64,000 nt of DNA from contig JAGVFW010000013.1 in NCBI GenBank assembly GCA_020057405.1, positions 64,001 through 128,000 of the forward strand, in the 5' to 3' direction. Shown piece by piece: positions 5,543 to 22,450 of this stretch (positions within the stretch are counted from its first letter, which is position 1; the number at the start of each line of letters is the position of its first letter). The stretch is from an archaeon. GTDB taxonomy: Archaea > Micrarchaeota > Micrarchaeia > Norongarragalinales > UBA97. Under the pieces are notes generated by a model. The model was given only the letters and a program-made list of their open reading frames with translations, was not told the origin of the DNA and made no database searches. Both the position numbers and the translations under genes were made by a program.

Positions 5543-5548
5543 CGCAAA

Positions 5549-6493
5549 TCACTTCCTAAGCAGGTTCTCGGCGTCAAGCTCCTCAAACGCGCGAATCATC
5601 ACGAGCGGGAAGGTGATTGTCACGTCGCCGATGACGGTCGCCACGTCGCTCTCGTCCTTGACTTTGCCCCACGACTTGGCTTCATTCGTCGTCGCACCGC
5701 TCATTGAACCTGACGTCTTGTGCGCAGTTGTCATGTAGACGGCGTATTCCGCACCGCCGTTTAGGAGAGTGGCGAGGATGGCGTGGTGCTTTGAAATGCT
5801 GCCGCCGAGGGCGATGACGCCCTTCTTGTCGTCGTGGCTGGTCGCGTAGAGAATGTTTCCGAAGTCCTTGACGACATCAATGACGAAGTCAGGGTGATCC
5901 TGCTGGAAGAGATATAGGTGAAAGCCGAAAGCGCCGTCGGTCACTGCGGGGCAGAAGATTGGCACATTGTTTTTCGCCGCTTGGTAGAGAATAGAGTCCT
6001 CATCGTTTAGCTGCAGGCCGATTTCGCGAAGCATTTCCGAGACTGCCCAGCGCTTTTTCTTGGCGTAGAGGCCGGCGATGACTGGGCGCAGGAGGTTCTC
6101 GAAGTTCATGTAACTCTCGTTCTTCACAAGAATGTTGCCAACGCGGTTGATTCCCTGCTCGTGCAGCTCGACGTCGTCGCGCTCGAAAGTGCCTAACTGG
6201 AAGCGCTCGCCCTTGGCCTTCATTATGTCTTCTTCAATGCCCCCAACGGTGGTGATGACGATGTCCGCCATGCCAAGGCGAATGCATTGTGCAAAGAAGC
6301 CCCTGAGGCCGGAAGTGACCATGTTGGAAGTGAAAGTGAGGAAAATCTTTGCGCCGTCCTTCTTCATTTTCACGATGACGTCTGACGCTTTCTTGAGCTC
6401 GACGCTCTGGTAACCGATTTGCGAGTAGCCGGCGACCAGTTCTCGCACGGTAATGCCTTTTTTCCAAGTAAAGTCCTTAACGTAATCAACCAT
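5549..6493 (-). CDS. dys: Deoxyhypusine synthase family protein
   Basis: TSNMVTSGLR, GINRVGN, SGA and EAKSWGK (active-site Lys). AGGTGA ribosome-binding site precedes the ATG at 6493. Confidence 0.9.
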   Translation of the reverse strand: MVDYVKDFTWKKGITVRELVAGYSQIGYQSVELKKASDVIVKMKKDGAKIFLTFTSNMVTSGLRGFFAQCIRLGMADIVITTVGGIEEDIMKAKGERFQLGTFERDDVELHEQGINRVGNILVKNESYMNFENLLRPVIAGLYAKKKRWAVSEMLREIGLQLNDEDSILYQAAKNNVPIFCPAVTDGAFGFHLYLFQQDHPDFVIDVVKDFGNILYATSHDDKKGVIALGGSISKHHAILATLLNGGAEYAVYMTTAHKTSGSMSGATTNEAKSWGKVKDESDVATVIGDVTITFPLVMIRAFEELDAENLLRK

Positions 6494-6520
6494 TGAAATC
6501 ACCTTTATGAATTATGGCGT

Positions 6521-7088: not shown

Positions 7089-7835
7089 ATGCCAGTAGAA
7101 CGGGTCCAGAGCGGCATTTACGGCCTTGACGAGCTGATTACGGGAGGGTTCCCAAAGGGCCGCACCATCCTCATTAGCGGCGCGTGCGGCACGGGCAAGA
7201 GCATTTTGTGCAGCCAGTACCTCTACCGCGGGGCCGCCGAGTTCGACGAACCCGGAGTTTACGTCGCTTTTGACGAGCGGCCGGAAGAAATTAGGAGCGA
7301 CATGGCGAACTTCGGCTGGGACATCGAAGCAATGGAAAAGAAAGGCAAGCTCGCGATTGTTGACGTTACTAGCGCCAAAGCCGGCGTGCCAAGCGAGGAA
7401 GACCACGCAATCCTCCCAGGCCAGCTTGACATTGACAAGATTCTCGTCGACGCGATTAGCGTGGCGCGCAACATTGGCGCGAAAAGAATGGTTTTCGACT
7501 CTATTCCCTCAATGGCCTTCCGCATGGACACCGTCCACGAAATCCGCAAAGGCATCTTGAAGCTCGCCTACATTTCGGCCAAAGCCGGCTTGACGACGCT
7601 GATTACAACTGAAGCCGAGGAATCGCCTTCCGGCGTTCCAATCAAGTTTTCCCGCTACGAAGTCGAAGAATACGTTGCAGATGGCGTCGTCGTCCTAGGA
7701 CTCTTCGGCGGCGGCCAAAGCGCCTTCCGCACACTCCACGTCCGCAAGATGCGAGGCACCAAACACGCCCTCGAACTCCACCCAATGGAAATAGGCGACA
7801 AGGGAATAACAGTCAAGAAGATAGGCGGAATTTAG
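7089..7835 (+). CDS. KaiC-like / RAD55 single-domain ATPase
   Basis: GACGTGKS Walker A, VFDS, EEYVADGVV and VRKMRGTKH. Confidence 0.92.
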   Translation: MPVERVQSGIYGLDELITGGFPKGRTILISGACGTGKSILCSQYLYRGAAEFDEPGVYVAFDERPEEIRSDMANFGWDIEAMEKKGKLAIVDVTSAKAGVPSEEDHAILPGQLDIDKILVDAISVARNIGAKRMVFDSIPSMAFRMDTVHEIRKGILKLAYISAKAGLTTLITTEAEESPSGVPIKFSRYEVEEYVADGVVVLGLFGGGQSAFRTLHVRKMRGTKHALELHPMEIGDKGITVKKIGGI

Positions 7836-8368
7836 CTTCCACTGGTTTTTGGTTTCAAAATAAAAACACACTCTGCTTCCCCAGTACAAACACACTTGGT
7901 TTCTACGCATTCAATCTCTTTGTCATATATTGTCGTAAAAATACCCGCAAAAAAACCCGCTATAAAATAATCCATAACTACCTTGGTCTTTTCGTTTTTT
8001 CGTAAATCATCTTTAGCTAATGAAGAAATTGCTCCGACGATTATACTCCCATCTGGGTTTGAAGAAATTCGGTTTATTTTCGCAAGACCTTGTAACTCCA
8101 CGATATTGCGCCATAACGCTACGCTCTCCATGCCCTTAACCTTAAAACGCTTATCTAAATCCTCGGAAAAATCCTTAGATGTCCTAAAACCCAAAGTGTA
8201 CAGAAGTTTTCCAGATTTGGCACTGTTTCCTTCGTTAAGAAGACTTCTCAAATGAGAGTGGATAGACGCAGGGTATAACAAATACGTAGAGTTGAAAATA
8301 GCCACATCGCCTTCAATAAAGCGCAATTGTTTTGCCATAAGCAATTTTTTAAAAAAGCCGGATAACAA
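7832..8368 (-). CDS. Stand-alone V4R domain protein
   Basis: C-terminal AGFFAGIF...ECVETKCVCTGEAECVF V4R signature. Confidence 0.85.
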   Translation of the reverse strand: MLSGFFKKLLMAKQLRFIEGDVAIFNSTYLLYPASIHSHLRSLLNEGNSAKSGKLLYTLGFRTSKDFSEDLDKRFKVKGMESVALWRNIVELQGLAKINRISSNPDGSIIVGAISSLAKDDLRKNEKTKVVMDYFIAGFFAGIFTTIYDKEIECVETKCVCTGEAECVFILKPKTSGS

Positions 8369-8842
8369 CTAAGTCTCCCCACGTATTCGTTTTATTTTTT
8401 CCCACTTTTCAAAATTCAGTACTAAATCGGCTTCTTGGTCGCTAACAATCGTGCTAACCAAAACTTCTCGGATTTTGGGATTACGCACTAGTTTTGATAT
8501 AGAAGCTGAAAGCGCTCGAGAAAACTTATCAGAACGCAATTTTGTAGTAAAATGCGCGGATATTGCTACTGGAACACCCGTCATAATCTCAATAAAGCCG
8601 CCTTTTTCGAAGAGAAACCGCTTGTAAAACTTTTCGCCAACGATATCTTCACCAATGAAACAGGTTTTTTCTCCGAAGTTTCTCTCCAGTGACTTAACGA
8701 ATTCAAACAAAGCACGATCAGTTTCAGATTCTGAATTTTGAGTCGCCAGCGCTACGAGATCCGCAGAGTCCGGCGTATCTGAACCAAAAGGTAGCGCTTC
8801 GGGAAGATCGATTAAAGTCACATACGAGTGTCTTAGTTTCAT
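8369..8842 (-). CDS. Hypothetical protein
   Basis: 157-aa ORF with GGAGGT upstream, directly abutting the V4R gene. Confidence 0.6.
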   Translation of the reverse strand: MKLRHSYVTLIDLPEALPFGSDTPDSADLVALATQNSESETDRALFEFVKSLERNFGEKTCFIGEDIVGEKFYKRFLFEKGGFIEIMTGVPVAISAHFTTKLRSDKFSRALSASISKLVRNPKIREVLVSTIVSDQEADLVLNFEKWEKIKRIRGET

Positions 8843-9015
8843 CCGGTACCTCCCACTAACACATTACGCATACTGTAACGCTATTTAAAAACACTAATCT
8901 ACCCGCATCTCAAAAGACACAGCAGACTTAAAAAGAGACCTAGCCTACGGGTATATACGCTAAACGCAGGTAGAAGGAAAGAAACTAACCGATAGTAAAA
9001 AAACTGGGGTAGATT

Positions 9016-10314
9016 TTGTTGAAAAACTTGCAAGTTGGCATTGGCTTTTCGGAAGTAGCAGATTCAAAAAAGGCGGCTAAGGCGGCCTCTGAACAAGCGC
9101 TGAAAACACTTAAGAAAAAGCCAACAATCACCTACGTTTTCTTCGCAGGGGAATACGATCCTAAAGAAATAAGCAGGGGGTTAGTTGAAGCACTTGGCGA
9201 TAGTGAATTTGTCGGGGGTTCCGGTGACGCGGTATTTTTTGAGGACAAGATATACCGGACCGGAATAGTGGTTGCGGCAATATACAGCGAATATCTCCAC
9301 GTAGGAATCTCCTCAATCGAAGGAATATCAAAAGACCCCCACGGACTAGCTAGGAAAGTAACTGCAGAAGCAATGAAGAAAATTGCAATAGACAAGTATG
9401 TAGATCCATACTTACAGTTTACTAGAATGAGAAATAGCAGCATAAAGTGGATGATTAAAAAACCATCATTCCACATTACAGTTTTTGCGAAAGGTATGAA
9501 ATTGCCTCAGATGGGAGAAGAAACCAAAATATTACAAGGAATAACTAGGGAAATGGGATTCAATGTTCCGATTTGGGGGGGCAGTTTCGGAGTACACCTC
9601 GAAAAGCTATTCGAACAAAAACCATACGACATTCACCTCTTACATTCAGGTAAAATACTCACAGACGGCTTAATCGTAGTAGTGAATTCAACAAGTCTAC
9701 TCTACGGACTATCCTTAGCGCATGGTTCGCAACGGACAAACAAAATAGGCTTCATTTCTGGCGTTACGGGGGGCGGGTACGTGATAACGGGAATTTCCGG
9801 TAAAAACCCCATAGACTGGTATTGTGAAAACCTAAACATACCTCGAAAAGAGTTTTTAAAAAATTCCATAGTTATTACTCAGAAAAACCCATTAGGAATT
9901 CCTGACAACTATGGCGGATTTATTATTAGGGCGGGCGGAGTACCCGCTGGAGAAAATCTAGCCTTTACTGCAACGTTCGAAGAAGGTTGGCCGGTATACA
10001 TCATGGATTCGAGCATAAGCAATATGGCCACGGCACCGGGTAAAGTAATCGAAGACCTGCGTGCAAGTACCAACGAAGCAACTCCGGCTCTAGCTCTAGC
10101 AATCATCTGCGCATCATGCAGAATCGTCACAGGAGAAAAAGGCGTCGCCGGAGAACTCAAAGAATTAAAGAAAAAGCTCGGCGGGGCGCCAATCGTAGGT
10201 TTCTCGTCATTTACTGAAATTGGAGCTAAAGAGGGCGTACCCACTACGGTACAGCACGAAGCTACAACCCTACTAACAATTTACGATAAATTGTTGCACG
10301 AAGTTAGGGATTGA
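9016..10314 (+). CDS. FIST (FIST_N plus FIST_C) sensory protein
   Basis: VGIGFS...AAKAASEQAL start, PIWGGS, NPLG, ICASCR and GFSSFTEIG...QHEAT motifs. Confidence 0.85.
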   Translation: MLKNLQVGIGFSEVADSKKAAKAASEQALKTLKKKPTITYVFFAGEYDPKEISRGLVEALGDSEFVGGSGDAVFFEDKIYRTGIVVAAIYSEYLHVGISSIEGISKDPHGLARKVTAEAMKKIAIDKYVDPYLQFTRMRNSSIKWMIKKPSFHITVFAKGMKLPQMGEETKILQGITREMGFNVPIWGGSFGVHLEKLFEQKPYDIHLLHSGKILTDGLIVVVNSTSLLYGLSLAHGSQRTNKIGFISGVTGGGYVITGISGKNPIDWYCENLNIPRKEFLKNSIVITQKNPLGIPDNYGGFIIRAGGVPAGENLAFTATFEEGWPVYIMDSSISNMATAPGKVIEDLRASTNEATPALALAIICASCRIVTGEKGVAGELKELKKKLGGAPIVGFSSFTEIGAKEGVPTTVQHEATTLLTIYDKLLHEVRD

Positions 10315-10325
10315 GTTGAACCTGC

Positions 10326-11873
10326 GTGACACCTATTCGAAACGCAACAATTTTAGTGCTGGGCGGAGCAGGACAAGTAGGCTTCGAATTTTGTTCACAA
10401 ATCCTATCCAAAAATCCACTGAAGCTCATTATTTGCGATATAAATGAGAAAAAAGTTAAGTCTGCCATTAGTAGATTAAATTCAAAAAGTCGTACGACCG
10501 CAAAAATCGGAGAATGGGGAGATATTTTTTCAGATAAACCGACAGCGAAGTCTGCGCTCATTCAAATAAAAAGCAGCATTGTCGAACTGACGAACCGAAC
10601 TGGCGTGCTGGCGGCTAGCGATGCCTCAGATACCTTCCTTTACAAGCTGATATGCAAATACAAGCCCGACATCCTTGTTGATGCGGTCAATACAGCTACT
10701 GCACTGGCTTACAAAGATAGTCGCGAATCAAAAACGCGCGAATCTACGCAACAAAACGACCTACCAGAACCGGTGCCGATTATGCAATTAATTCGACACA
10801 CGCAAGTGTTGTTTCAGGCGTTCAGAAAAGCACAAACTAAGGAATATATAAAAATAGGAACTGGCGGAACCGGCGGCCTTGGTTTCACTTTGCCATATAC
10901 ACACGGTGAAAATGAAGTTCCGTCAAAACTCCTAATGAGTAAATCTGCCGTTGCAGGCGCGCAAACCATGCTTTTGTGGGTTTTGGCAAGAACTCCAATG
11001 ATGCCAATAATAAAGGAAATTAAAGTTACGGCACTCATAGGATGGAGAGAAATTGGGCGGGGTGAATTCACCATCGACTCCGAACCAATCGCACTCTATG
11101 ATTGCCCAATTGAAAAGAGCCTAACTATCAGCGATGCGCTAAAAAAACACAATTCAATCAGATTAAATAAAAATCTACACGGGACGTGGATTGACACTGG
11201 AGAAAATGGAATATTTACTAAAGATATGTTCGCGGCTATTACTTCGAGAAACAACATGGAGCTAATTACTCCAGCAGAAATAGTCAAAATAATCATAGAC
11301 GAAATTGAAGGCAAGCACACCGGGAAAGACACAATATCGGCCATGGATAATGCAGTACTTGGCCCTACACTAATCGGAAGCGGAATGCGGCAAGTCGCTA
11401 TAGATCGAATGAAGGATGACGACGAAGTTGTGGCAAGTATACCGACGCTAGGCCCCCTAACGGCAAAAATATTGTGGGAAGCCGCATTACTGAAAACCTC
11501 TTTCGAGAATATCGATCAAGTAATAAAAGAAAATGAAAAACATATATCGGAAAGGACTTTTGAAAAAATAAGCAGAGATCAAACGCTGAGAGCTAAAATA
11601 ATATCCATAGGAATACCCATCCTCTTACCTTCTGGTAAGCTTCTTCGCGGTCCAACTATATCAATTCCAGATCAGAGTCGAGTATCCTCAAACCTGCGAG
11701 ATGTCGAGACTTGGGCCGCCACTGGCTGGGTAGACCTTAGGCCTAAAAACTGGCTGCTTTGGAAAACCTGGCTCCGCGACTATCGCACATCTAATAACAA
11801 TTCATTCAATATCGGCGAGATTTGCGGATGGATTTTTGCGCATAAGCTTGGCGGAATGAGGATAAAACGGTGA
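10326..11873 (+). CDS. NAD(P)-binding Rossmann-fold oxidoreductase (SDR-like), substrate unknown
   Basis: N-terminal VLGGAGQVG, also DAVNTATALAY, IGTGGTGGLG and DTGENG. Confidence 0.65.
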   Translation: MTPIRNATILVLGGAGQVGFEFCSQILSKNPLKLIICDINEKKVKSAISRLNSKSRTTAKIGEWGDIFSDKPTAKSALIQIKSSIVELTNRTGVLAASDASDTFLYKLICKYKPDILVDAVNTATALAYKDSRESKTRESTQQNDLPEPVPIMQLIRHTQVLFQAFRKAQTKEYIKIGTGGTGGLGFTLPYTHGENEVPSKLLMSKSAVAGAQTMLLWVLARTPMMPIIKEIKVTALIGWREIGRGEFTIDSEPIALYDCPIEKSLTISDALKKHNSIRLNKNLHGTWIDTGENGIFTKDMFAAITSRNNMELITPAEIVKIIIDEIEGKHTGKDTISAMDNAVLGPTLIGSGMRQVAIDRMKDDDEVVASIPTLGPLTAKILWEAALLKTSFENIDQVIKENEKHISERTFEKISRDQTLRAKIISIGIPILLPSGKLLRGPTISIPDQSRVSSNLRDVETWAATGWVDLRPKNWLLWKTWLRDYRTSNNNSFNIGEICGWIFAHKLGGMRIKR

Positions 11874-13027
11874 TAACTAACTTCGAGGAGCTTTTAACAA
11901 CATCCTCACGCACATTAGACCCGAAACAGATTTCACCAGCCGTATGGGCTTCAAAAAATTGGGAAAAACTAGATAGGAAAAGTACTGAAACGACCCTTCT
12001 TCCGTTTATTAAGTTTCAAATTAATCGCGCTGGCAAAGCAATGCCAGATATTTACTCGCCATACACGAAAAAAAATACGCCAATAAACGAGTTTGAAGAT
12101 TTTTTTAATTTACCTGCACTAGTAAAAGACACGGGAACCCACTCCATCGGATTTAGAGAAAAGGTCAAACTTAATCCGTATATACTATTACCAAAAGATA
12201 CGAGTTCAGCTACGGTCGTCTATAAATCAGGCGGTACTCGGGGTACAGCCACTCCCACGTTTCTAACCACTTGGGATCACGAAGTTGAAGCGCTTTCCTT
12301 AAAAAAGTGCTTCGAGTATATGGGAATAAAGAAAGATGTGGTTGCGCTTAATTCTTACAATCCGACACATAAAGGCGGACAACTGATTACCAATGCACTC
12401 TTAGCTCTGGGCGTAAAAGTTATACCTAGGCGTACAACCGATACGCCAACAGAAATGATTAACACGATAAAAACCTACGGCGTATCAATGTTAGCAACAG
12501 TACAAGGCCCACTTAGTGAAGATGATAATGTTCGAAAAGGCGCAGGGATAGATTTCCTATCACTTATTGAAGCGGGACAAGATGTACTCGAACAACACTT
12601 AGACTTGTTGTTCATTACCGGCTATTCGCTCATTCCGGAAGTTATTGCTTGGTCAGAAAGTAATAAAAAAAACCTCGCTACGTGTTTAGGTTCTTCGGAA
12701 GCAATTCCCCAAGCAACTAGCACAGTAAAAGGTACAAAGTGCAAATACAACAACCTGCACCTGATTAACGGCCCCCACTACCTCGAAATCGTAAAGCTGG
12801 AATCTGGAACACTCGTTCCAGTAAAACGGGGAGAAACTGGCCTGCTACTATACACCACCATTGCAAGAGACGGTACGATATACATCCGATACGCTCCGGG
12901 TGACGCGGCAACACTAACGGCTTACGGTGGAGAATGCGACTGTGGAATACGTACACCCATCATTTCAAATATTCGAAGAATAGATATACCTGAAGATACT
13001 ATTGCCGCCGGCTGTTGCATAGGGTAG
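11870..13027 (+). CDS. Adenylate-forming ligase (PaaK / LuxE-like acyl-protein synthetase)
   Basis: YKSGGTRG P-loop, GSSE, GLLLYTT and IRYAPGD motifs; C-terminal GCCIG. Confidence 0.75.
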   Translation: MITNFEELLTTSSRTLDPKQISPAVWASKNWEKLDRKSTETTLLPFIKFQINRAGKAMPDIYSPYTKKNTPINEFEDFFNLPALVKDTGTHSIGFREKVKLNPYILLPKDTSSATVVYKSGGTRGTATPTFLTTWDHEVEALSLKKCFEYMGIKKDVVALNSYNPTHKGGQLITNALLALGVKVIPRRTTDTPTEMINTIKTYGVSMLATVQGPLSEDDNVRKGAGIDFLSLIEAGQDVLEQHLDLLFITGYSLIPEVIAWSESNKKNLATCLGSSEAIPQATSTVKGTKCKYNNLHLINGPHYLEIVKLESGTLVPVKRGETGLLLYTTIARDGTIYIRYAPGDAATLTAYGGECDCGIRTPIISNIRRIDIPEDTIAAGCCIG

Positions 13028-13032
13028 AACAA

Positions 13033-14454
13033 ATGACCCACCTAAAATTTAACAACTATATAGGCGGAAAGGAAGTTCTACTTTCAGGACAAACTTTTAC
13101 AGTTGAAAGCAGCATATATCCCGACTATCAGTTTCTAGCTCCTGAAGCGGGACTATTTGATATTAAAACGGCAATTTCTAAGGCGCGTACATCTGTAAAA
13201 GACTGCCACGCACTTACCTTTAGCGAACGAATAGAAATACTTGAACGAGCGGCGGCTTCTTTTTCGCCAACTGCAACTGATTTCGAGTTCGCTGTCAAAA
13301 CCACAGGCATGCCCATATCAAATGTTAGGTCTTTTTCAGAAGATATTCGAAATATTTACCGCAATGTACCGATTGCTATAGAAAAGCACATAGGCCGGCT
13401 GGGCGACCGGTTCGGACATGACCTTAGACACTCAGAAGGCACCGTGCATTTTGAACCAATAAATGGAATAGTATATGCAATTACGCCAGGTAACGATATT
13501 CGCGTAACCGCATTCATTGCAAGTTGGCTAGTAGCCTTAGGAATACCCGGAATATTTAAATGCTCAAAAAACGACCTCGCGTTTGCTAATAAAACTTTAC
13601 AAAAGTTAGTCGAGGCGGGCTATCCGGAAGGCGGTCTTAACCTGCTTTGTTGGGATACACAAAAAAAGGAAAATGCTAAATTAAATTTCGAATTGGTAGA
13701 TTCTTCGAAAGTTGTTTGGGCATATGGAGCCGATTCGACCGTTGATTTCATGCTTCGATTTGAAACAAAATCTGAAAACCAAGTTTTAGATCACTTTTCG
13801 GACAAAACCATACTAAGACATGCAACCGGAAGAACCGCAGCTATATCCTCTCCGAAAACAGACATCGAAAAAGTATCTGAACGCGCGACTACCTCCGCTT
13901 TAACTTGGCCGATTGGTTGTAACTCGCTAAAAGCACTATTTAACGCATCCAACAAAAACACCGAGGTTGTTAGCGCCCTAACGGAAAAGTTCGAGCAACT
14001 TGCTAAACATACCGGCGACCCCATGAAAAACACTACGAAGATAGGCTTCACGGAACCAAAACTACTAGCCCAGGTGTGGAACAGAATAAATGACCTCAAA
14101 AAAACCGGTCAGCTTAGCTTGCTTACTGGAGAAAAAATTAGTGAAAGACAATGCACGCCGCTACTCTTAGAAACTCTCGACCTTAATTCGGAATTCCTAA
14201 ACACTGAATTTTCTACTTATCTACTAACTATCAAAAACTGCTCCGGGTTTAGTGAAGCGATAGATGAGGTCAATGTAACTTCAGGTGCGAATAGACGACT
14301 CGTAGTAACTGTTTTTTCTTCTGAAAATGAAAAACTCGGAAGAATTCACGCGCACCGAATAAATATGAACACCATAACAACCGATCTCGACCTATTATTT
14401 CAAGAAGGAAACGACTACTTTAGCAAACTGACTACGCCCCAACTTCATAAATGA
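13033..14454 (+). CDS. ALDH-superfamily protein, LuxC-like acyl reductase
   Basis: ITPGN, KCS, VWAYGADSTV (LuxC-like xWGGxxAV) and catalytic Cys in IGCNS. The ELGG glutamate motif is replaced by HATGR. Confidence 0.7.
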   Translation: MTHLKFNNYIGGKEVLLSGQTFTVESSIYPDYQFLAPEAGLFDIKTAISKARTSVKDCHALTFSERIEILERAAASFSPTATDFEFAVKTTGMPISNVRSFSEDIRNIYRNVPIAIEKHIGRLGDRFGHDLRHSEGTVHFEPINGIVYAITPGNDIRVTAFIASWLVALGIPGIFKCSKNDLAFANKTLQKLVEAGYPEGGLNLLCWDTQKKENAKLNFELVDSSKVVWAYGADSTVDFMLRFETKSENQVLDHFSDKTILRHATGRTAAISSPKTDIEKVSERATTSALTWPIGCNSLKALFNASNKNTEVVSALTEKFEQLAKHTGDPMKNTTKIGFTEPKLLAQVWNRINDLKKTGQLSLLTGEKISERQCTPLLLETLDLNSEFLNTEFSTYLLTIKNCSGFSEAIDEVNVTSGANRRLVVTVFSSENEKLGRIHAHRINMNTITTDLDLLFQEGNDYFSKLTTPQLHK

Positions 14455-14468
14455 ACGAATAGAACGCA

Positions 14469-15242
14469 TTAAAGCTTCAAAACGTCTTCATCGGAAACAA
14501 ACTCGATTCCGCTCTTTGAAAATCTATACGATAACGCCTTCCGTTCATGATCAGTATACCTCATTTTTCTAACTTGCAAAGATCGAAATTCGGCAGTACC
14601 TATTCCAAAAAAACTCAGGAAAATTACACCATCGGCAAGAAATTCTGAAATTCCGTCCGAACTCATACCTTTTCCTCGCTCTGGCAATTCTGAAGTGAGA
14701 AAAATTGTCGCACCCAACGCCCTTAGACTAGAAATAACCGTAGCTAACATTCGCTTAGTCATAGTTTTCTCCGAAGTACTCCTAGGTGGAATTTTATCTA
14801 AACTTCGTGAAGGCACCCCTCCGCGCTTAAGCAATACTTCCTTTGCAAAATCAGATACCAAGGCAAACTCAGAAAAAGTACTCATAGAGTCTAAAACCAG
14901 CCGTTGCGGAGAAAACTGACGAATCGCAGTGAAAATTTCGCTCAAAAAAGACTCGTCCTTTAATATATCTACATAAACTATTTTGAGCAAGTTTTTATCT
15001 ACCCAAAGATTCAAATCCCACCCGTATTGGGCAGCTTGCTTATTCAATTCTTCAAACGTCTGTTCGGTTGAAACGTACATACTTCGCTCATTATTTGCTA
15101 TCCCCTGAAGTAAGAAATGCAAACATAAGGTACTCTTACCAGTTCCGGCCCCCCCCGAAATTAATACTACGTTCCCCTTAGGAATGCCCCCACTAATGGC
15201 CTCATCCAAGCCGATAATGCCAGTTTTAACTCTCTCAATCAT
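14469..15242 (-). CDS. KaiC-like / RAD55 single-domain ATPase
   Basis: GGAGTGKS, VLDS, EFLADGVI and VRKMR. Confidence 0.9.
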   Translation of the reverse strand: MIERVKTGIIGLDEAISGGIPKGNVVLISGGAGTGKSTLCLHFLLQGIANNERSMYVSTEQTFEELNKQAAQYGWDLNLWVDKNLLKIVYVDILKDESFLSEIFTAIRQFSPQRLVLDSMSTFSEFALVSDFAKEVLLKRGGVPSRSLDKIPPRSTSEKTMTKRMLATVISSLRALGATIFLTSELPERGKGMSSDGISEFLADGVIFLSFFGIGTAEFRSLQVRKMRYTDHERKALSYRFSKSGIEFVSDEDVLKL

Positions 15243-15263
15243 CGAGATACTTAGGCTTGCCCA

Positions 15264-16154
15264 TTAAAAAAGCATATCGGATCGGGTAGCTTTACCCCGT
15301 TTGAATCCACCTTTAGTCGGGCCTACCTCAAACACGCATTTTTGGTCGCCTTTTGCTATGCACTTGGTTTCTTTTGCTTCGATTGCTGGGTCACCATACA
15401 TTACGGCGAATCCTCCCGCTAGGCAGCCGCGCAGAAAATCGTCCACAGGCTCCTTGCTTTTTCCGAAACGATTAAGGTATTCGACTGCGAAGGGAGAATA
15501 ATCTACTGTGACGAAAGCGGTTTTATTTGCCGTATCTATCTGCTCGATGTTTAGACTCCCCCAGCCGACTATTGAGAGCGTGTCAATGCCGTGCTGGAGT
15601 TCTACATCCAAGTCGCCACGGGTTACGCCCGTTCTACGCATTTCAGAATACCAACTGACGCTCATATCTCTTACCGTTTTGTAAAGAAGGCCGGGCTTCT
15701 TTTTGAGTTCAATGTGCCAAAGTAGGTACTGATACATCGGAATCATGCAAATCTTGTGCCCAAATAAGTAAAGCTCATCCTTCGACAGGGTGAGATTTCC
15801 ACTAAGCAAAAGATGTTTGAGCAGCGACAATGCCCTAAATGCAGAAAACATCCGGCCCTTGGCCGGAATGGCGAAAAAAGTTTTTGAATCGGAAGACGCC
15901 TGTATTGTCGAAATTTCTTGCGCCAAATTTCCCAACCAAACGCGATTAATAGAATAACCGGCATCATCTTTCACTAGCATTCCGGCGGCGGCCATTTCGC
16001 CGAGCGCCTTGTGTACGCCTTGGTAGGTAGCTTTGGTGCCTTCCTTTTGCACTGCCTTGAACGTTTCTTTTGCCGTTAGGGGCGCTTGCTCGGAGAGCGC
16101 GTTAAGCGTGGCGCCTTTCACACCGCCCAATGCAGAGCCTAGGACTGAACTCAT
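15264..16154 (-). CDS. wHTH-V4R transcriptional regulator
   Basis: N-terminal PLTAKE...ATYQGVHKALGEM wHTH and C-terminal RGCLAGGF...ETKCIAKGDQKCVF V4R. Start trimmed to ATG 16154 (ATGA overlap). Confidence 0.8.
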   Translation of the reverse strand: MSSVLGSALGGVKGATLNALSEQAPLTAKETFKAVQKEGTKATYQGVHKALGEMAAAGMLVKDDAGYSINRVWLGNLAQEISTIQASSDSKTFFAIPAKGRMFSAFRALSLLKHLLLSGNLTLSKDELYLFGHKICMIPMYQYLLWHIELKKKPGLLYKTVRDMSVSWYSEMRRTGVTRGDLDVELQHGIDTLSIVGWGSLNIEQIDTANKTAFVTVDYSPFAVEYLNRFGKSKEPVDDFLRGCLAGGFAVMYGDPAIEAKETKCIAKGDQKCVFEVGPTKGGFKRGKATRSDMLF

Positions 16155-16978
16155 TTTCTCCCTCCGCACAGTGCAATCGTTTCTTTCTTTAGTTGGTCGG
16201 CGAGGGCTTGGTTGCGGATGACTGCAACTGGCACTCGCGCCTTTTTCATGAAAACCGCCTCGTAGAAGCTGTCGACATCGAAGTCGCTCATTTTGGAGGC
16301 GGAGTTGTAGACTTTGTCGAGTGCTTTCTTGAACTCGAGCGGGTAGTAGACGCGCACAACGAAGTCCTTGTAGACGACGGTATCCGTGCTCGTCGCTTCC
16401 TTCACGCCAATCCGGTGCTTCAGCTTGGAGTTCTTGCGCCAGTAGTCCGCGCACCAGCGGTCAAGCGGCGTGTCGGCAGGCGTTATCGAGTAGCTGTCGG
16501 ACACGCTTACCAGCTCCTTCATGCGCAAGTAAGTCTCGCGGTTGAGGAACAGGGGAACCCAGAAGTGGCACCACTGCAGCGCCAGTACCTTGTCCTTTGG
16601 GTCAAAAACCTTCTGCGCGAAAGAGACAAGGAAATCGTCAACCTCGGCAACAGAATCAAAAAAAAGCACCGACTGGCCGGCGGGCATGCTTAAACCGGTC
16701 TTCGAATAGGAAGACTTGAGCTCGTCAGAAAACCGTGAGAGTCCATCAATCCAATCAAAGGAAAGAGAGTAACCCTCTGGAGAACGGGAAATCACGCCCT
16801 CCAAAGAAAGCTCGCCTAAAGACTTGTGGATTGCCTGATAAGTAAGGTGCGTTCCGTTCTTCGCAATTGCGGAATGGATTTGCTTGGCAGAGAGCGGCCA
16901 CTTGGCAGAGAGAACACTGATAATCGCGCTTTTCGCGTCCGCTTTTCCTCGACTGCCTAGAGTAGGTAATTCAATCAT
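16151..16978 (-). CDS. wHTH transcriptional regulator (paralog 3)
   Basis: KWPLSAKQIH...LTYQAIHKSLGEL...YSLS. Start trimmed to ATG 16978. Confidence 0.75.
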   Translation of the reverse strand: MIELPTLGSRGKADAKSAIISVLSAKWPLSAKQIHSAIAKNGTHLTYQAIHKSLGELSLEGVISRSPEGYSLSFDWIDGLSRFSDELKSSYSKTGLSMPAGQSVLFFDSVAEVDDFLVSFAQKVFDPKDKVLALQWCHFWVPLFLNRETYLRMKELVSVSDSYSITPADTPLDRWCADYWRKNSKLKHRIGVKEATSTDTVVYKDFVVRVYYPLEFKKALDKVYNSASKMSDFDVDSFYEAVFMKKARVPVAVIRNQALADQLKKETIALCGGRK

Positions 16979-17826
16979 TTCCTTCCCCTCCTGAACTCGG
17001 CGAGCGTTTCGTCGATGATTTGTTTTGCCATTGCCTTGTTGCGGGTGATGACTACTGGGACTTTCATGCGGGCGCCGATTCCGACGAGCACGTAGTCGTA
17101 GACGACACGCATTACGCTGGCCGCTGACTGGGACGAGAAAGTCAGGTGCATGAACTTTTTGAATGCGGGGGGCCAGTAGATGTTGATTACGTAGTCGTTG
17201 AAGGCGAGCACGTCGCACGCTTCGGCAACGTCAACACCGGCAAGCCATTTGAGGGCTATTGGACCCTCCAAGTACTTCAGGCAGTAAATGTCCCCAGGTG
17301 AGTTGCCTCGGCAGAGAGCGTAATTGCCCTTGCTTTTCTTGAATCTGGCCATTTTCTTGTATTGCTCCTCGCCAACCATTTGCGCCGCCCAAGCGAACCC
17401 GCAGTGCTGCACAATCACGCTCTTGCCTGCGGCGATTGGAGGCATCTCATCAATGACCCAATAGGGGGCGGAGATTATGCCCGTAAAAGTGTAGGAAACC
17501 GAAGAGTTGGGAGGAATTTCCAAGAGACGAGGAGGCTCTCCGCCCGAATATCGCTTGCTAGCGTCATTCCACCAAGCTTTCTGCGCTTCGACCCACCCTG
17601 GCGAAAGCGAATATCCTTCCGGCAAGCGCGAGATAACGCCATCGGCCGACAACTCGCCCAAGACCTTGTGCACCGCTTGGTAAGTAAGTGGCTTGCCGCC
17701 GTCCTTTGAAACTACAGCGTGCAACTGCTTTGCAAACAAGGGCCATTTGACTGCTAGCGCGTTGATCACGCGCGAGCGGGCGTCATGCCTGCCGCTTGCG
17801 AGCAGTCCCGCGTTAAGTTCAGCCAC
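16975..17826 (-). CDS. wHTH transcriptional regulator (paralog 2)
   Basis: KWPLFAKQLH...LTYQAVHKVLGEL; C-terminal VITRNKAMA shared with its paralogs. Confidence 0.75.
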   Translation of the reverse strand: MAELNAGLLASGRHDARSRVINALAVKWPLFAKQLHAVVSKDGGKPLTYQAVHKVLGELSADGVISRLPEGYSLSPGWVEAQKAWWNDASKRYSGGEPPRLLEIPPNSSVSYTFTGIISAPYWVIDEMPPIAAGKSVIVQHCGFAWAAQMVGEEQYKKMARFKKSKGNYALCRGNSPGDIYCLKYLEGPIALKWLAGVDVAEACDVLAFNDYVINIYWPPAFKKFMHLTFSSQSAASVMRVVYDYVLVGIGARMKVPVVITRNKAMAKQIIDETLAEFRRGRK

Positions 17827-18721
17827 TGCGCTTGCCTCCGGTTTTGAAGTGCGTTGCCAGCTTCCTTCTCATTTCTCTTGCAAGCGCGGCGTTTCGGGTG
17901 ATGACTAGCTTGATTTTGAATTTCTTTTGGAAGCAAATCTTGTAGAGGGAATTGAGGTCCATGATTTTTTTTATCATGTTCTTACTGAACCACGCCATTA
18001 CTTCGGGGGGCGTGTAAATCTGGACGATAAAATCGCCGAAAACCACGGAGTCTACCTTGTTTGCAGGGTCGGTGCCCATAACGTAGGGCGTGCCGAAACC
18101 ACGCTTCCAAAACTCTAGAGTGAACCTATCGAGAAAGAAGTTCGTCGTGCACACGAGCCTTGTGCGGGCCGAGGAAGTAAGCTGCCTGATTTCATCATAC
18201 TCTTTCTTGCTAACAATAAAGACCGGCCAGGCGCCGTACATCACGATGAAAACATCGCCCTCGACCCTGTGCTTGAGAGTATACTCCGCCATCTCGGAAA
18301 GAACCCAGTAAAAGGGCGCGGCCAGACTCTCGTTAAACTCCACAGTTGTGCTGGAATCAGGCGCAATGTCGGCAAACGAAATGCGGTCAGGCGAGACGTG
18401 ACGCACTTCCGCCTCCTGCAAAAACTTCTTAGAACGCGAAATCCAGTCAAGAGACAAACGATAATTGCTAGAAAAATTGCGCTCAAGCACGCCCTCAGAA
18501 GCAAGGCGCCGAACCACCTTGTGGACGGCCTGGTAAGTCAACTGCTTGCCGCCGTCAGATAAAAGAAGCGAGTGAACATGCTTTGCGGACAACGGGGACT
18601 TTCTAGCCAGTGCCGAGATTACACGCGAGCGGGCGTCACGGCGCCCCGACGCTAGGACACTTTCCGAAAGCCCCCGATCTAAGTTGCCAACCAAACCCCA
18701 AACCACCACTCCGCAGGACAC
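17819..18721 (-). CDS. wHTH transcriptional regulator (paralog 1; start uncertain)
   Basis: SPLSAKHVH...LTYQAVHKVVRRL; C-terminal VITRNAALA. Confidence 0.75.
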   Translation of the reverse strand: MSCGVVVWGLVGNLDRGLSESVLASGRRDARSRVISALARKSPLSAKHVHSLLLSDGGKQLTYQAVHKVVRRLASEGVLERNFSSNYRLSLDWISRSKKFLQEAEVRHVSPDRISFADIAPDSSTTVEFNESLAAPFYWVLSEMAEYTLKHRVEGDVFIVMYGAWPVFIVSKKEYDEIRQLTSSARTRLVCTTNFFLDRFTLEFWKRGFGTPYVMGTDPANKVDSVVFGDFIVQIYTPPEVMAWFSKNMIKKIMDLNSLYKICFQKKFKIKLVITRNAALAREMRRKLATHFKTGGKRSG

Positions 18722-18769
18722 GAAGAGTCCCGGGGATTGCCAACTGGATAGTGGTGACGACCGGCTATA

Positions 18770-18834
18770 AACTTTTAGTTGATTGCAGTTCTACCGCACC
18801 TCTTTATTCGGGCACAAACACAATAATTTCGACA
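18770..18834 (+). promoter_or_regulatory. Operator/promoter element, copy 1
   Basis: AACTTTTAGTTGATTgcagTTCTACCG...TTTATTC..GCAC..CACAATAATTTCGACA, near-identical to 22386-22450. Confidence 0.65.
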
Positions 18835-19946: not shown

Positions 19947-20807
19947 ATGGGGCAGGTGGTTGGAATGGGTTTGCTTGGAAAACTTTTGGGCGGAGAAAAG
20001 CCTATGCCCAAGAAGAGCGGGGGGCACGGCAGCCACTGGCAAACGCTTTTCCCCCAGTTGGACGACGTGTTTGTAAAAGCGCTCGTGGCCGGAGCGGAGT
20101 CAAGTAAGGTAGAATTAAGCCGCAAGGGCACGTTTGCAGGAATGCGGGACACTACGCTGGCGTACGCGGTGTTTGGAGAGAAACTTGCGTTCGTTTACGC
20201 GCTTTTCTTAAAAGAAGTCGAACGCGATGGAAAGAAGCTGAAAGGCCTGATTGTTGACGAACCGTTCACCGCATACCCCGCTTACTTTGCCGCAAAGCCA
20301 CATAACGGCACGATCAAGGCGGTTGAGGAATGGGCAAACGGGACCGAAGCGCAGGTGCAAGTCAAGCTCGACGCTGGACCTGCTTTGTGGTTTTTCGCGA
20401 CCGACTACTTGGAGAAGAAGGAAAAGTACGCAGTTGGAAGCAAGGCGGCACCCAAACTCGCGGGTTTTGCATATCGGCTGAACAAATTAGGCGACGAAAA
20501 ACGCGAAGTCACGCTTCCTGACGGGAGCAAGGCGTCAATGGACAACTTCGCGGGCATTATCCCCATGCAGATGACGCACAAGGCTGGCGATGTCGACGAT
20601 TATGCCGTGTGGGCGAAGGTAGAGCGGCTTTCGCAAGAGAAAACGCCAGTTAGCGCGAAAGTCGTCGAGGCGATTGTGGCGTACGGAGGCGAAAACCACA
20701 AGACAGCCATATCGATTCCCATCGTGACCACGGAAAAAACACTTCCCGATGCAGTCAAGCCCGGCGAGAAAATCACGGGAACGATTTGGTTAACTGGATC
20801 GCTTTGA
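19947..20807 (+). CDS. Hypothetical protein
   Basis: 286-aa ORF with normal composition; no motif recognised. Confidence 0.6.
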   Translation: MGQVVGMGLLGKLLGGEKPMPKKSGGHGSHWQTLFPQLDDVFVKALVAGAESSKVELSRKGTFAGMRDTTLAYAVFGEKLAFVYALFLKEVERDGKKLKGLIVDEPFTAYPAYFAAKPHNGTIKAVEEWANGTEAQVQVKLDAGPALWFFATDYLEKKEKYAVGSKAAPKLAGFAYRLNKLGDEKREVTLPDGSKASMDNFAGIIPMQMTHKAGDVDDYAVWAKVERLSQEKTPVSAKVVEAIVAYGGENHKTAISIPIVTTEKTLPDAVKPGEKITGTIWLTGSL

Positions 20808-20809
20808 GA

Positions 20810-20840
20810 CAATCAACTTTTAGTTGATTGTGGTTCTACC
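20810..20840 (+). promoter_or_regulatory. Palindromic operator, copy 2
   Basis: CAATCAACT-TTT-AGTTGATTG followed by TTCTACC, upstream of the radical SAM gene. Confidence 0.65.
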
Positions 20841-20875
20841 CAACAAATAAGATTCTGCAAAAATAAAACAAGTTA

Positions 20876-22380: not shown

Positions 22381-22450
22381 CAATCAACTTTTAGTTGATT
22401 TCAATTCTACCGAGCTAATTTATTCCGGCACTTCCACAATAATTTCGACA
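22381..22450 (+). promoter_or_regulatory. Operator/promoter element, copy 3
   Basis: CAATCAACTTTTAGTTGATT..TTCTACCG..TTTATTCCGGCAC..CACAATAATTTCGACA. Confidence 0.65.

Follow-up and report, generated by a model that had tools for sequence, protein, structure and literature searches.

Does a cluster of archaeal genes that surrounds a carboxylic acid-reducing enzyme pair with FIST, V4R and KaiC proteins both make a small molecule and sense it? The window, which is the whole stretch of 64,000 nucleotides analysed here, contains such a cluster at positions 7089 to 18721, and a preliminary description had read it as a synthesis-and-sensing system. All twelve genes were found at the expected positions and on the expected strands (Table 1), confirming that the locus is real and that the gene order, from the first KaiC gene to the array of winged-helix (wHTH) genes, had been given correctly. 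The 1.22 Mb genome holds four KaiC genes above the cut-off (two at the locus), three V4R genes (two at the locus) and one FIST gene only, which lies here. As these few genes gather at one place, and as the same set recurs in distant relatives, the arrangement exceeds chance.

Table 1. Features of the locus, with positions in the window.
Feature	Position	Strand	Description
KaiC1	7089..7835	+	Single-domain KaiC/RecA-type ATPase, 248 aa, Walker A and B; Pfam KaiC 228 bits
V4R protein, stand-alone	7832..8368	-	178 aa; Pfam V4R 39.9 bits (cut-off 31)
hyp157, orphan small protein	8369..8842	-	157 aa; conserved; core cassette member
Divergent intergenic region	8843..9015	.	173 bp; separates hyp157-V4R from the FIST operon
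FIST, stand-alone	9016..10314	+	432 aa; FIST_N 64 bits, FIST_C 47 bits; first gene of the enzyme operon
PF27054 protein ("SDR")	10326..11873	+	515 aa; atypical SDR-fold NAD(P)-binding enzyme with extra helical C-terminal domain
PaaK-like adenylate-forming ligase	11870..13027	+	385 aa; without the ANL C-terminal subdomain
ALDH-superfamily protein	13015..14454	+	479 aa; Aldedh 65 bits; LuxC 21.1 bits (cut-off 21)
KaiC2	14469..15242	-	Single-domain KaiC-like ATPase, 257 aa, with insertion; Pfam KaiC 165 bits in two stretches
wHTH-V4R one-component regulator	15264..16154	-	296 aa; V4R 34.3 bits (genome search)
wHTHa	16151..16978	-	275 aa; winged helix and ~180-aa C-terminal domain without family assignment
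wHTHb, wHTHa paralogue	16975..17826	-	283 aa; stop overlaps start of next gene
wHTHc, paralogue	17819..18721	-	300 aa; first gene of the putative regulator operon

The divergent intergenic region is A+T-rich and showed two TATA-like stretches on inspection, consistent with a promoter role; a palindromic motif found further downstream is absent from it. The genes wHTHc, wHTHb, wHTHa, wHTH-V4R and KaiC2 probably form a five-gene operon, given their overlaps of 4-8 bp and a single 21-bp gap, and the overlap between the longest reading frames of the last regulators implies that their true starts are internal. KaiC2, the last gene of this putative operon, converges on the ALDH gene.

Recurrence of the gene set was surveyed in 45 ligase loci, the window included, 14 of which extended at least 4 kb on either side of the ligase gene. 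Whether enzyme and sensor or KaiC genes also occur together elsewhere had been a check proposed for the preliminary description, and they do: FIST and KaiC were each found in 13 of the 14 long loci and V4R in 11 (locus L135, from separate inspection, being a 12th), counts which come from kindred loci and hence from non-independent samples. By comparison, a density of four KaiC genes per 1.22 Mb, as in the own genome, would give about 0.07 in a stretch of 20 kb. The small protein hyp157, previously listed just as "hyp", was present in 12 of the long loci and is a core component. Upstream sequence reached 1.5 kb or more in 29 loci, and 23 of these had FIST; 42 loci extended for 300 bp or more downstream of the ligase gene, and in 41 of them the ALDH gene adjoined it. 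These loci show directly which genes belong to the set, how it is conserved and what residue patterns its proteins carry. The set was retained across at least four gene orders: divergent, as in the window; wholly co-linear (FIST-lig-ALDH-hyp157-V4R); hyp157-FIST-lig-x-ALDH-V4R with a convergent KaiC; and part-inverted (L137). One locus (L101) had FIST and KaiC and lacked hyp157 and V4R, and in bacterial-type loci and L105 the ligase-ALDH pair stood without any sensors, from which it follows that the enzymes are able to work sensor-free. The cassette is common to small symbiotic (DPANN) archaea; a search of the literature other than the survey of archaeal KaiC neighbourhoods (Makarova 2017) found no published description of it.

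The enzymes had been claimed to activate and reduce a carboxylic acid, and the residue pattern of the ligase and its ALDH-like partner agrees, supporting their assignment as a putative acid-to-aldehyde reductase. A profile of 18 ligase homologues matched PaaK (PDB 4r1l) with E 3.3e-14, the match being confined to residues 8-327 of the 436 in PaaK; the C-terminal subdomain of about 100 residues is absent and a short cysteine-bearing tail stands in its place. Invariant ligase residues include the P-loop S120-G122, C291, C356, C358, R370, G381 and C382, and the G381-C382 pair sits three residues from the C-terminus. In the ALDH-like protein (23 sequences) C302 is invariant, N160 and E398 are nearly so, and a histidine aligns to the glutamate of the ELGG general-base motif; it is predicted to be a thioester reductase of the non-hydrolysing type.

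This design resembles that of LuxC-LuxE. In the LuxE of Photobacterium phosphoreum, too, the C-terminal subdomain is missing, and the acyl group is bound to the cysteine in a short C-terminal motif containing Gly-Cys (PMC9157457). In both systems a truncated adenylate-forming enzyme with a conserved cysteine in its tail is paired with an ALDH-fold reductase with a catalytic cysteine, encoded by a neighbouring, co-oriented gene. The labels LuxE-like and LuxC-like stand for the design but not for the family, since the LuxE model did not match the ligase and the LuxC model matched the ALDH-like protein at the cut-off in one search and not at all in another. The cassette differs further in being archaeal, in having no LuxD and no luciferase, in placing the pair among FIST, V4R and KaiC genes, and in the three additional invariant cysteines of its ligase. 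Since C382 is one of four cysteines that never vary in the ligase (the others being C291, C356 and C358), it could be a metal ligand instead of an acyl carrier. PaaK (PDB 4r1l, 2y27) is the closest sequence relative, matched across the N-terminal domain with its P-loop and core motifs; unlike PaaK, the ligase has its tail instead of the C-terminal subdomain, and no paa catabolic genes lie near the cassette. An aryl-acetic or similar acid is our guess for the substrate, on the basis of the kinship to PaaK and to V4R proteins.

The core has two enzyme genes, not the three originally proposed, and the third enzyme varies among loci. The PF27054 gene, found in 7 of the 45 ligase loci, is an optional third enzyme and one of several interchangeable ones; in other loci the same slot held, by Pfam, a class IV aminotransferase, a class I/II aminotransferase, adh_short or ApbA, with aminotransferases in nine loci. 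The description of the PF27054 protein as an SDR holds by fold, as the top Foldseek matches of its AF2 model (pLDDT 79.8) were SDRs (AerF, E 2.4e-6), but not as a typical member: a local Pfam search matched only the first ~55 residues (Rossmann), and the precomputed family is PF27054. It has more than 2476 homologues, chiefly bacterial and about 565 aa long.

Of all the cassette proteins FIST is the best conserved: it shares 76% identity with its L087 orthologue, whereas the ligase reaches 63% and the ALDH-like protein 56%. Eighteen stand-alone sequences all have D217, H236, C365 and E401, and C365 and E401 were kept in all 11 sequences of a set that included five wHTH-FIST fusions. These two residues align to C326 and E362 of FBXO22, in an alignment that is marginal (E 0.025). 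In FBXO22, alkyl and aryl aldehydes react reversibly with C326 to give a hemithioacetal, and E362 aids the reactivity of this cysteine (10.1101/2023.11.01.564830; 10.1101/2025.08.29.673087). Both proteins thus have a FIST_C domain with a nucleophilic cysteine and a nearby glutamate; FBXO22, however, is a human F-box protein and ubiquitin-ligase substrate receptor whose aldehyde ligands (degraders) are synthetic, whereas the archaeal FIST is stand-alone or winged-helix-fused and its aldehyde binding is predicted. The Cys-Glu pair may instead be a general FIST_C feature unconnected with aldehydes. NosP-type FISTs have been reported as haem NO sensors; like them, the archaeal protein combines FIST_N and FIST_C without an output domain and is encoded beside signalling proteins, but it scored 25 bits against the NCBIfam NosP cut-off of 450 and has no histidine kinase partner at the locus.

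The earlier claim that FIST and V4R act as ligand sensors was strengthened by the regulators. The N-terminal ~95 residues of wHTH-V4R aligned to the profile of the wHTH paralogues with an hhalign probability of 98.3%, and one such module is common to the wHTH-V4R, wHTH-FIST and wHTH-unknown-domain proteins (98.3% and 99.3%); the fusion of the same DNA-binding module to both domains supports their probable role as sensor domains here. The winged-helix call itself was consistent with the Pfam matches, which were weak (Penicillinase_R in 5 of 10 paralogues, HTH_45 in 3 of 10). Arrays of paralogues number three genes in the window and seven in L100, and an Atlas search with wHTHa pointed to the FilR1 middle domain (score 0.88), as a lead only. 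The stand-alone V4R protein has a conserved C-terminal E-x2-C-x7-C cluster, with E156, C159 and C167 invariant in nine orthologues. The V4R domains of PoxR and MopR sense phenolic substrates and, with that of MsvR, share a conserved cysteine cluster with the cassette protein (PMC5847659). The architecture of wHTH-V4R is similar to that of MsvR, whose C-terminus was matched weakly in NCBIfam; the cassette V4R proteins differ from all three in scoring under the family cut-offs, and one of them is stand-alone beside the orphan hyp157. Pfam and NCBIfam searches gave no match for hyp157, which has 18 invariant columns in 12 orthologues and a family of 99 representative clusters; its AF2 model (pLDDT 83.9) weakly resembles the fold of S-adenosylmethionine decarboxylase (E 6.7e-4, TM 0.43/0.53).

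KaiC1 orthologues (52-60% identity) adjoin the cassette in six loci (L087, L088, L096, L097, L102 and L103), and KaiC2 orthologues converge on it in L100, L104 and L134-L137. KaiC1 fell below the cut-offs of the NCBIfam clock-KaiC models and KaiB was not found in this genome. Makarova, Galperin and Koonin (mBio, 2017; cited in PMC5847659 and PMC6393860) are said to have proposed KaiC-like ATPases as archaeal signal-transduction hubs. The cassette agrees in encoding single-domain KaiC/RecA-type ATPases beside sensor and output domains, and differs in adding a metabolite-making enzyme pair together with FIST, V4R and hyp157.

The cassette is low in GC and patchy. The island has 42% GC against 55% in the remainder of the window, with KaiC1 host-like (0.56), and of 12 further loci, 11 had a cluster of lower GC than the sequence on either side; among 401 genomes of the phylum, 8 have the ligase, with E < 1e-170 in six. 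The low GC relative to the flanks and the patchy occurrence suggest that the cassette may be a horizontally mobile make-and-sense unit of DPANN archaea.

In the make-and-sense reading, which in our judgement stands about evenly between right and wrong, acid-to-aldehyde enzymes would be coupled to FIST/V4R/KaiC sensing and transcriptional output. The truncated ligase would adenylate a carboxylic acid and load the acyl group onto its own C-terminal cysteine; the ALDH-like partner would take it on its catalytic cysteine and reduce it with NAD(P)H to the aldehyde, following LuxE/LuxC logic. A lineage-specific third enzyme would convert the aldehyde to an alcohol or amine, this being the atypical SDR PF27054 here, whereas other loci have aminotransferases of class IV or class I/II, classical SDRs or ketopantoate-reductase-like proteins. 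The stand-alone FIST would sense the aldehyde as a reversible hemithioacetal at its invariant Cys-Glu pair, the V4R protein (with hyp157) and wHTH-V4R would sense this or a related hydrophobic ligand, and the KaiC-like ATPases and winged-helix regulators would translate the state of the ligand into control of transcription, both of the cassette and of genes near it. Support is good both for the predicted acid reduction and for its coupling to sensors; the catalytic direction, the ligand and each protein-protein step we infer. Overall, the earlier interpretation was supported in part: the co-occurrence of enzymes, sensors and KaiC, the acid-reducing enzymes and the sensor domains stand, while the core shrinks to two genes and the Lux labels describe a design.

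Operons with adjoining substrate-sensing regulators are the commonest prokaryotic arrangement, and the cassette might be an ordinary substrate-induced pathway, salvaging or converting a host-derived acid to a needed alcohol or amine, with FIST, V4R and wHTH as conventional regulators responding to the substrate or unrelated cues and the KaiC ATPases as general regulators linked by chance. The sensing of phenolic substrates by PoxR and MopR and the sensor-free pairs of other lineages would fit. We consider this unlikely, as three sensor architectures and one or two KaiC genes kept through many rearrangements exceed the usual load of a two- or three-step pathway, FIST, whose gene heads the co-transcribed enzyme genes, is conserved better than any other protein of the cassette, and its Cys-Glu pair suggests an aldehyde, not an acid. 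It is quite unlikely that the system is quorum-like, with a diffusible aldehyde, alcohol or amine leaving the cell to be sensed by FIST and V4R in neighbouring symbionts or within a host-symbiont pair and transduced by KaiC. Bacteria are known to have signals derived from acid reductases; genes resembling a synthase and receptors are kept together in one mobile cassette, the wHTH arrays are expanded, and a product class (alcohol or amine) that differs by lineage while the sensors stay constant is expected of diversifying signals. The conserved set nevertheless has no exporter or secretion component, every sensor is predicted to be cytoplasmic, aldehydes are reactive and poor as long-range signals, and this reading is indistinguishable from intracellular feedback.

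The pathway could also run in the oxidative, energy-conserving direction, from an amine or amino acid by transamination to an aldehyde and an ALDH-bound thioester, with the ligase reversed to form ATP from AMP and pyrophosphate. DPANN cells are energy-limited, the cassette aminotransferases would supply the first step, and a non-hydrolysing ALDH without the general-base glutamate suits thioester formation and reduction equally. LuxE-type enzymes with a C-terminal cysteine are, however, known only as reductive (PMC9157457). AMP-forming ligases rarely run in reverse and SDR-type third enzymes better suit aldehyde reduction, making this direction very unlikely. That the low GC and patchy distribution mark a defence or conflict island, releasing a toxic aldehyde on demand against viruses or competitors, seems to us highly improbable: KaiC/RecA-type ATPases are found in some defence systems, but PADLOC models matched the two KaiC proteins only weakly, at the P-loop level, and none of the other eight proteins scanned, and nucleases, proteases and membrane effectors are all missing from the conserved set.

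Under the make-and-sense reading, the cassette of these DPANN archaea is a testable candidate for a regulatory module that would both make a small molecule and sense it.

All the genes named in the preliminary description, which had proposed a quorum-like synthesis-and-sensing system around KaiC ATPases, were found in the window in the order that it gave. The genes for the stand-alone FIST protein, the PF27054 protein, the PaaK-like ligase and its ALDH-like partner are tightly packed, with overlaps of 4 bp and 13 bp and a single 11-bp gap, and a second tight operon is formed by the four regulators and KaiC2 (overlaps of 4-8 bp, gap of 21 bp). The GC content was 42% across approximately 7.8-15.9 kb, as compared with 55% in the rest of the window. 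The host genome (1.22 Mb, 17 contigs, 90.6% complete) encodes four KaiC, three V4R and one FIST proteins over the Pfam cut-off, of which two, two and one, respectively, are located at this locus; the KaiC and V4R genes located elsewhere in it have no cassette genes nearby.

Genes of the cassette in the window
Feature	Position	Strand	Description
KaiC1	7089-7835	+	single-domain, 248 aa
V4R protein	7832-8368	-	178 aa
hyp157	8369-8842	-	157-aa orphan
FIST protein	9016-10314	+	stand-alone FIST_N/FIST_C
PF27054 protein	10326-11873	+	new Pfam family, 515 aa
Ligase	11870-13027	+	PaaK-like, 385 aa
ALDH-like protein	13015-14454	+	479 aa
KaiC2	14469-15242	-	single-domain, 257 aa
wHTH-V4R	15264-16154	-	
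wHTHa-c	16151-16978, 16975-17826, 17819-18721	- (all)	three paralogous regulators

Homologous ligase loci (numbered with the prefix L) were obtained from a metagenome scan, which yielded 37 loci, and from a search of 401 genomes of the phylum, eight of which carried the ligase, six of them at E < 1e-170; the window proteins served as tblastn queries to score the 45 loci, window included. With 130 matches, the ligase family is a small one, centred on archaea with the source names Norongarragalinales, Micrarchaeota, Diapherotrites and Woesearchaeota, and its more distant members (37-40% identity) come from bacteria, among them Omnitrophica and Parachlamydiales. An ALDH gene followed the ligase gene in 41 of the 42 loci with at least 300 bp of downstream sequence. 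Of the 29 loci that extend 1.5 kb or more on the upstream side of the ligase, 23 encode FIST there, the ligase identity being 37-49% in the six loci without it. The co-occurrence of the enzyme genes with sensor and KaiC genes, on which the preliminary description depended, thus extends to other genomes: among the 14 loci with flanks of 4 kb or more in both directions, which are kin and not independent samples, FIST was present in 13, KaiC in 13, hyp157 in 12 and V4R in 11 or 12, given that the V4R of L135 was detected in one search and was sub-threshold in a larger one. The KaiC density of the host genome corresponds to an expectation of about 0.07 KaiC genes per 20 kb. Exceptions were L105, where the ligase-ALDH pair lies between transposase genes, and L101, where two FIST genes and three KaiC matches were found and neither hyp157 nor V4R.

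Several gene arrangements were observed. A divergent order like that of the window was found in L097 and L098, and a fully co-linear one, KaiC1-(small wHTH)-FIST-(PF27054)-ligase-(aminotransferase)-ALDH-hyp157-V4R-(wHTH-FIST), in L087, L090, L091, L096, L099 and L102. The order hyp157-FIST-ligase-c25-ALDH-V4R, in which c25 is a membrane protein, was accompanied by a convergent KaiC2 in L100, L104 and L134-L136, while L137 was partly inverted and L088 was reshuffled, with divergent enzymes. The same six families are kept through these rearrangements at 47-63% ligase identity, which is a classical signature of functional coupling. In the bacterial-type loci L112-L115, the ligase-ALDH pair is found beside an M14 carboxypeptidase, a D-Ala-D-Ala-ligase-like ATP-grasp enzyme and a class I/II aminotransferase, a gene set that we take to resemble carrier-protected amino-acid side-chain reduction, as in LysW-type pathways.

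A profile of 18 ligase sequences matched phenylacetate-CoA ligase PaaK in the PDB (4r1l, E = 3.3e-14), with an alignment that covers only residues 8-327 of 436 and nothing of PaaK 328-436. The residues S120-G121-G122, G125, P129-T130, E277 and G344-D345 are invariant in these 18 sequences; with its P-loop, its core adenylation motifs and its similarity to PaaK, the protein belongs to the PaaK branch of the ANL enzymes. The ANL C-terminal subdomain with the catalytic Lys is absent, the protein ending 15 residues past the invariant R370, and a G381-C382 pair at the C-terminus is invariant in the 18 sequences. LuxE is described as likewise devoid of this subdomain and as carrying instead a motif of about 20 residues containing Gly-Cys, whose Cys364 delivers the acyl moiety to LuxC Cys296 (Tian et al. 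2022, PMC9157457). The ligase therefore has the layout of LuxE, namely an ANL N-domain alone followed by a short Cys-bearing motif, for which an acyl-accepting role is predicted. The terminal Cys could also be a metal ligand rather than an acyl carrier, since four cysteines are invariant in the protein (C291, C356, C358 and C382). The protein on record for this gene (P0121) is 328 aa long and has a later start; the GTG start at 11870 is favoured, because the additional ~57 N-terminal residues (window 11870-12040) align with seventeen homologues.

The ALDH-like protein matches PF00171 (65.4 bits). Its C302, invariant in 23 ALDH-like sequences, is aligned to the catalytic Cys of 8hap, Asn160 is kept, and in the same profile alignment a His occupies the general-base Glu position of the ELGG motif; a Cys with His replacing Glu is as expected for a putative thioester-reducing or thioester-forming enzyme, not a hydrolysing one. 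The LuxE and LuxC-like labels of the preliminary description are apt for the design of the pair and less so for its family membership. LuxE (PF04443) was absent from the Pfam matches of the ligase at E <= 0.01, and a translated search of the whole genome with the LuxE HMM gave no match at E <= 1, the ligase being nearer to PaaK. The case of LuxC is borderline: its HMM (PF05893) matched residues 150-331 of the ALDH-like protein with 21.1 bits against a cut-off of 21.0, and nothing was found at E <= 1 in the translated genome search. Because LuxE gave no match and LuxC was at the cut-off or not found, the pair, which is predicted to work like LuxCE, is placed in a lineage of its own inside the PaaK and ALDH families. 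Judged from these sequence features, acid-reductase chemistry is the probable activity of the two proteins.

The gene that accompanies this core pair is variable. In the window it encodes the PF27054 protein, the "SDR" of the preliminary description, which occupies the slot between FIST and the ligase in 7 of the 45 loci. The members of PF27054, a large family (more than 2476 matches), are mostly bacterial and ~565 aa long; numerous positions are invariant, and a Gly/Thr-rich loop is present. In the AlphaFold model (pLDDT 79.8) the first ~350 residues are SDR-like and a helical domain is added; the best SDR match in Foldseek had an E of 2.4e-6 (TMt 0.5-0.6), K206 is invariant, and the position of the SDR Tyr, as read from the motif without active-site superposition, is Leu or Val. 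A true homologue was found in only three of the 401 sampled phylum genomes, the other two also lying inside the same gene set. PF27054 was considered as the key to the system and rejected, because its bacterial homologues stand alone: in tblastn searches none of 80 bacterial loci (L002-L081) had ligase, ALDH, FIST or V4R neighbours, and no conserved neighbour was found, the largest neighbour cluster covering 16 of the 74 centred loci that were left after six without a clean central ORF were dropped.

Other loci carry replacements, namely a class IV aminotransferase (four loci), a class I/II aminotransferase (five loci), a classical SDR (L120 and L121) or a split ketopantoate-reductase-like gene (L088). 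Five loci (L100 11101-12099, L104 and L134-L136) have, between the ligase and ALDH genes, the polytopic membrane protein c25 of ~330 aa, which has no Pfam family and carries a conserved Asp-rich stretch; our impression is that this motif may be prenyltransferase-like. Most simply, these loci would share the aldehyde as an intermediate, which some lineages would turn into an alcohol and others into an amine. The interchangeable third enzyme is new here.

The FIST protein, in which both FIST_N (PF08495, 64.2 bits) and FIST_C (PF10442, 47.2 bits) scored over the cut-off, is the most conserved of the cassette proteins: identity with L087 was 76% for FIST, 63% for the ligase, 56% for ALDH, 53% for hyp157 and 37% for V4R. 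Its subfamily (35 matches) comprises DPANN source names only. D217, H236, C365 and E401 are invariant in 18 FIST sequences, and the same His, Cys and Glu were present in five wHTH-FIST fusions of related cassettes (11/11 sequences). Human FBXO22 was the sole PDB match of the FIST profile, at a marginal E of 0.025, and the HMMER alignment of this marginal match places C365 on FBXO22 C326 and E401 on E362. C326 of FBXO22 is reported to form a reversible hemithioacetal with alkyl and aryl aldehydes, its reactivity being supported by E362 (10.1101/2023.11.01.564830; 10.1101/2025.08.29.673087). Having a Cys and a Glu at the equivalent positions, FIST may bind aldehydes; this apparent Cys-Glu correspondence is new here, and no description of a prokaryotic FIST as an aldehyde sensor was found in the literature searched. 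We infer that a FIST with a predicted aldehyde-reactive pair just upstream of a putative aldehyde-making pair is the most specific mechanistic lead of the locus. That FIST senses the aldehyde is a tentative proposal, somewhat less probable than its converse. The complex prediction for ligase and FIST scored 0.01, which counts neither way.

V4R (PF02830) was matched by the stand-alone protein (39.9 bits) and by wHTH-V4R (34.3 bits). The Cys cluster E-x2-C-x7-C is kept, with E156, C159 and C167 invariant, and in this the cassette V4R is like those of the phenol sensors PoxR and MopR, for which Cys clusters have been noted (PMC5847659). The hyp157 model (pLDDT 83.9) is a compact alpha/beta protein. 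A role as decarboxylase is not proposed, the fold similarity to AdoMetDC being weak and no Glu-Ser processing motif having been seen in the alignment; an Atlas search with hyp157 returned nothing above 0.82. Domains like hyp157 occur at the C-terminus of proteins of 687-1548 aa (P0322, P0326, P0339, P0344, P0346 and P0371), and forms of ~225 aa, as in L118, have an extra hydrophobic tail. Eight relatives were scanned (seven large fused proteins and one of 225 aa); bacterial Ig-like domains were found in one of the large proteins and no Pfam families in the remaining seven, so that these forms were uninformative.

The N-terminal module of ~90 residues of wHTHa-c is common to wHTH-V4R (hhalign probability 98.3%) and also matches the wHTH-FIST of L096 (99.3%). 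Its winged-helix Pfam matches are weak but consistent, and a PDB sequence search with the profile of the paralogues gave nothing significant. V4R, FIST and a ~180-aa domain without a known family thus each occur in fusion with one and the same DNA-binding module, and a putative winged-helix module common to three sensor types is new here. The combination of a DNA-binding module with a ligand-input domain is the architecture of one-component regulators; fusion of the same module to each of them, as in such regulators, argues that FIST and V4R are probably the ligand-input domains of this system. A stand-alone wHTH version of ~92 aa is encoded just upstream of FIST in many cassettes, and L100 has seven tandem wHTH paralogues.

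Directly adjoining the wHTH array of the window, a ~68-nt element with a palindromic core is present in three copies, 66-82% identical (18767-18834, 20812-20879 and 22383-22450), just upstream of co-oriented genes for a CARDB protein, a radical SAM protein and a gene near 22.6 kb. These elements could be the operator of the wHTH regulators, and in that case the system's output; the FIST promoter lacks the motif, and a search for an operator shared by that promoter and the elements found none. Also downstream of the regulators, a 286-aa protein without a Pfam family (19947-20807) is 32% identical to a homologue encoded in the distant locus L100 (16457-17233), a few genes past the cassette, and may be a further, loosely linked component.

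KaiC1 and KaiC2 match PF06745 with 228 and 165 bits, and Walker A is visible in both. They are unlike circadian KaiC, being single-domain and not double-domain proteins; with circ_KaiC, for which the cut-off is 546 bits, they scored 153 and 84 bits, and no KaiB was found in the host genome (90.6% complete). The GC content of the cluster was below that of its flanks in 11 of the 12 other long loci, with the strongest contrasts in L134 (0.40 vs 0.55) and L136 (0.38 vs 0.53), and the cassette was present in about 2% of the sampled phylum genomes, spread over several families. The cassette behaves as an accessory island, and these data on its composition and patchiness are new here. The genes for an ornithine/arginine-decarboxylase-like protein and for deoxyhypusine synthase just upstream of it in the window (4508-6502) have a host-like GC content and are syntenic with the flank of L097; they thus appear to have housekeeping functions and no connection with the island. 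In L105, the genes flanking the ligase-ALDH pair encode IS66-type and Mutator-type transposases (8799-9188 and 13264-14502), suggesting that the two-gene unit is itself mobile.

Taken as a whole, the cassette may both make and sense a small molecule. The LuxCE-style pair would reduce an acid to an aldehyde, which the variable follow-up enzyme would then convert; FIST, V4R and the wHTH fusions would read the aldehyde or its product, and the KaiC ATPases would act as transducers or modulators. We give this complete picture about even chances. A conventional pathway induced by its substrate is unlikely, and an oxidative, ATP-conserving direction of the enzymes is very unlikely. A conflict system is the least probable of the readings, with hardly any weight: PADLOC gave no defence-family match for the cassette proteins, the only hits being weak, P-loop-level ones to the KaiC proteins (best E = 1.7e-6, mad8) and none to the other eight proteins scanned.

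The quorum-like signalling of the preliminary description would be a special case of the make-and-sense cassette, and as such is rather improbable. A broader version, equally speculative, is that the sensing of aldehydes or similar electrophiles through the Cys-Glu pair is the basic function of FIST domains, and that the cassette is an archaeal autoinducer-type system for symbiont-symbiont or symbiont-host coordination in DPANN, in which a LuxCE-style aldehyde would be turned into a lineage-specific alcohol or amine and read by FIST, V4R-hyp157 and the wHTH fusions, with KaiC as transducer. If true, this autoinducer reading would also explain why aldehydes can engage human FBXO22.

No description of the cassette was found in the literature searched, but it may have been listed before. 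Two long-standing questions, the ligand of FIST and the role of the archaeal KaiC-like ATPases, are made testable by one small gene set, which supplies a candidate FIST ligand (the aldehyde that its neighbours would make), candidate reactive residues (Cys365 and Glu401) and natural fusions, wHTH-FIST and wHTH-V4R, that are usable as reporters. Targeted protein degradation exploits the reactivity of FBXO22 towards aldehydes, and a link between FIST and aldehydes, if it holds, would account for this reactivity in evolutionary terms. For biocatalysis, the enzymes would be of interest as a second lineage, an archaeal one, of LuxE/LuxC-type acid reductases. The host interactions of DPANN symbionts are poorly understood, and the cassette would be a sign that these organisms carry out small-molecule chemistry under regulation.
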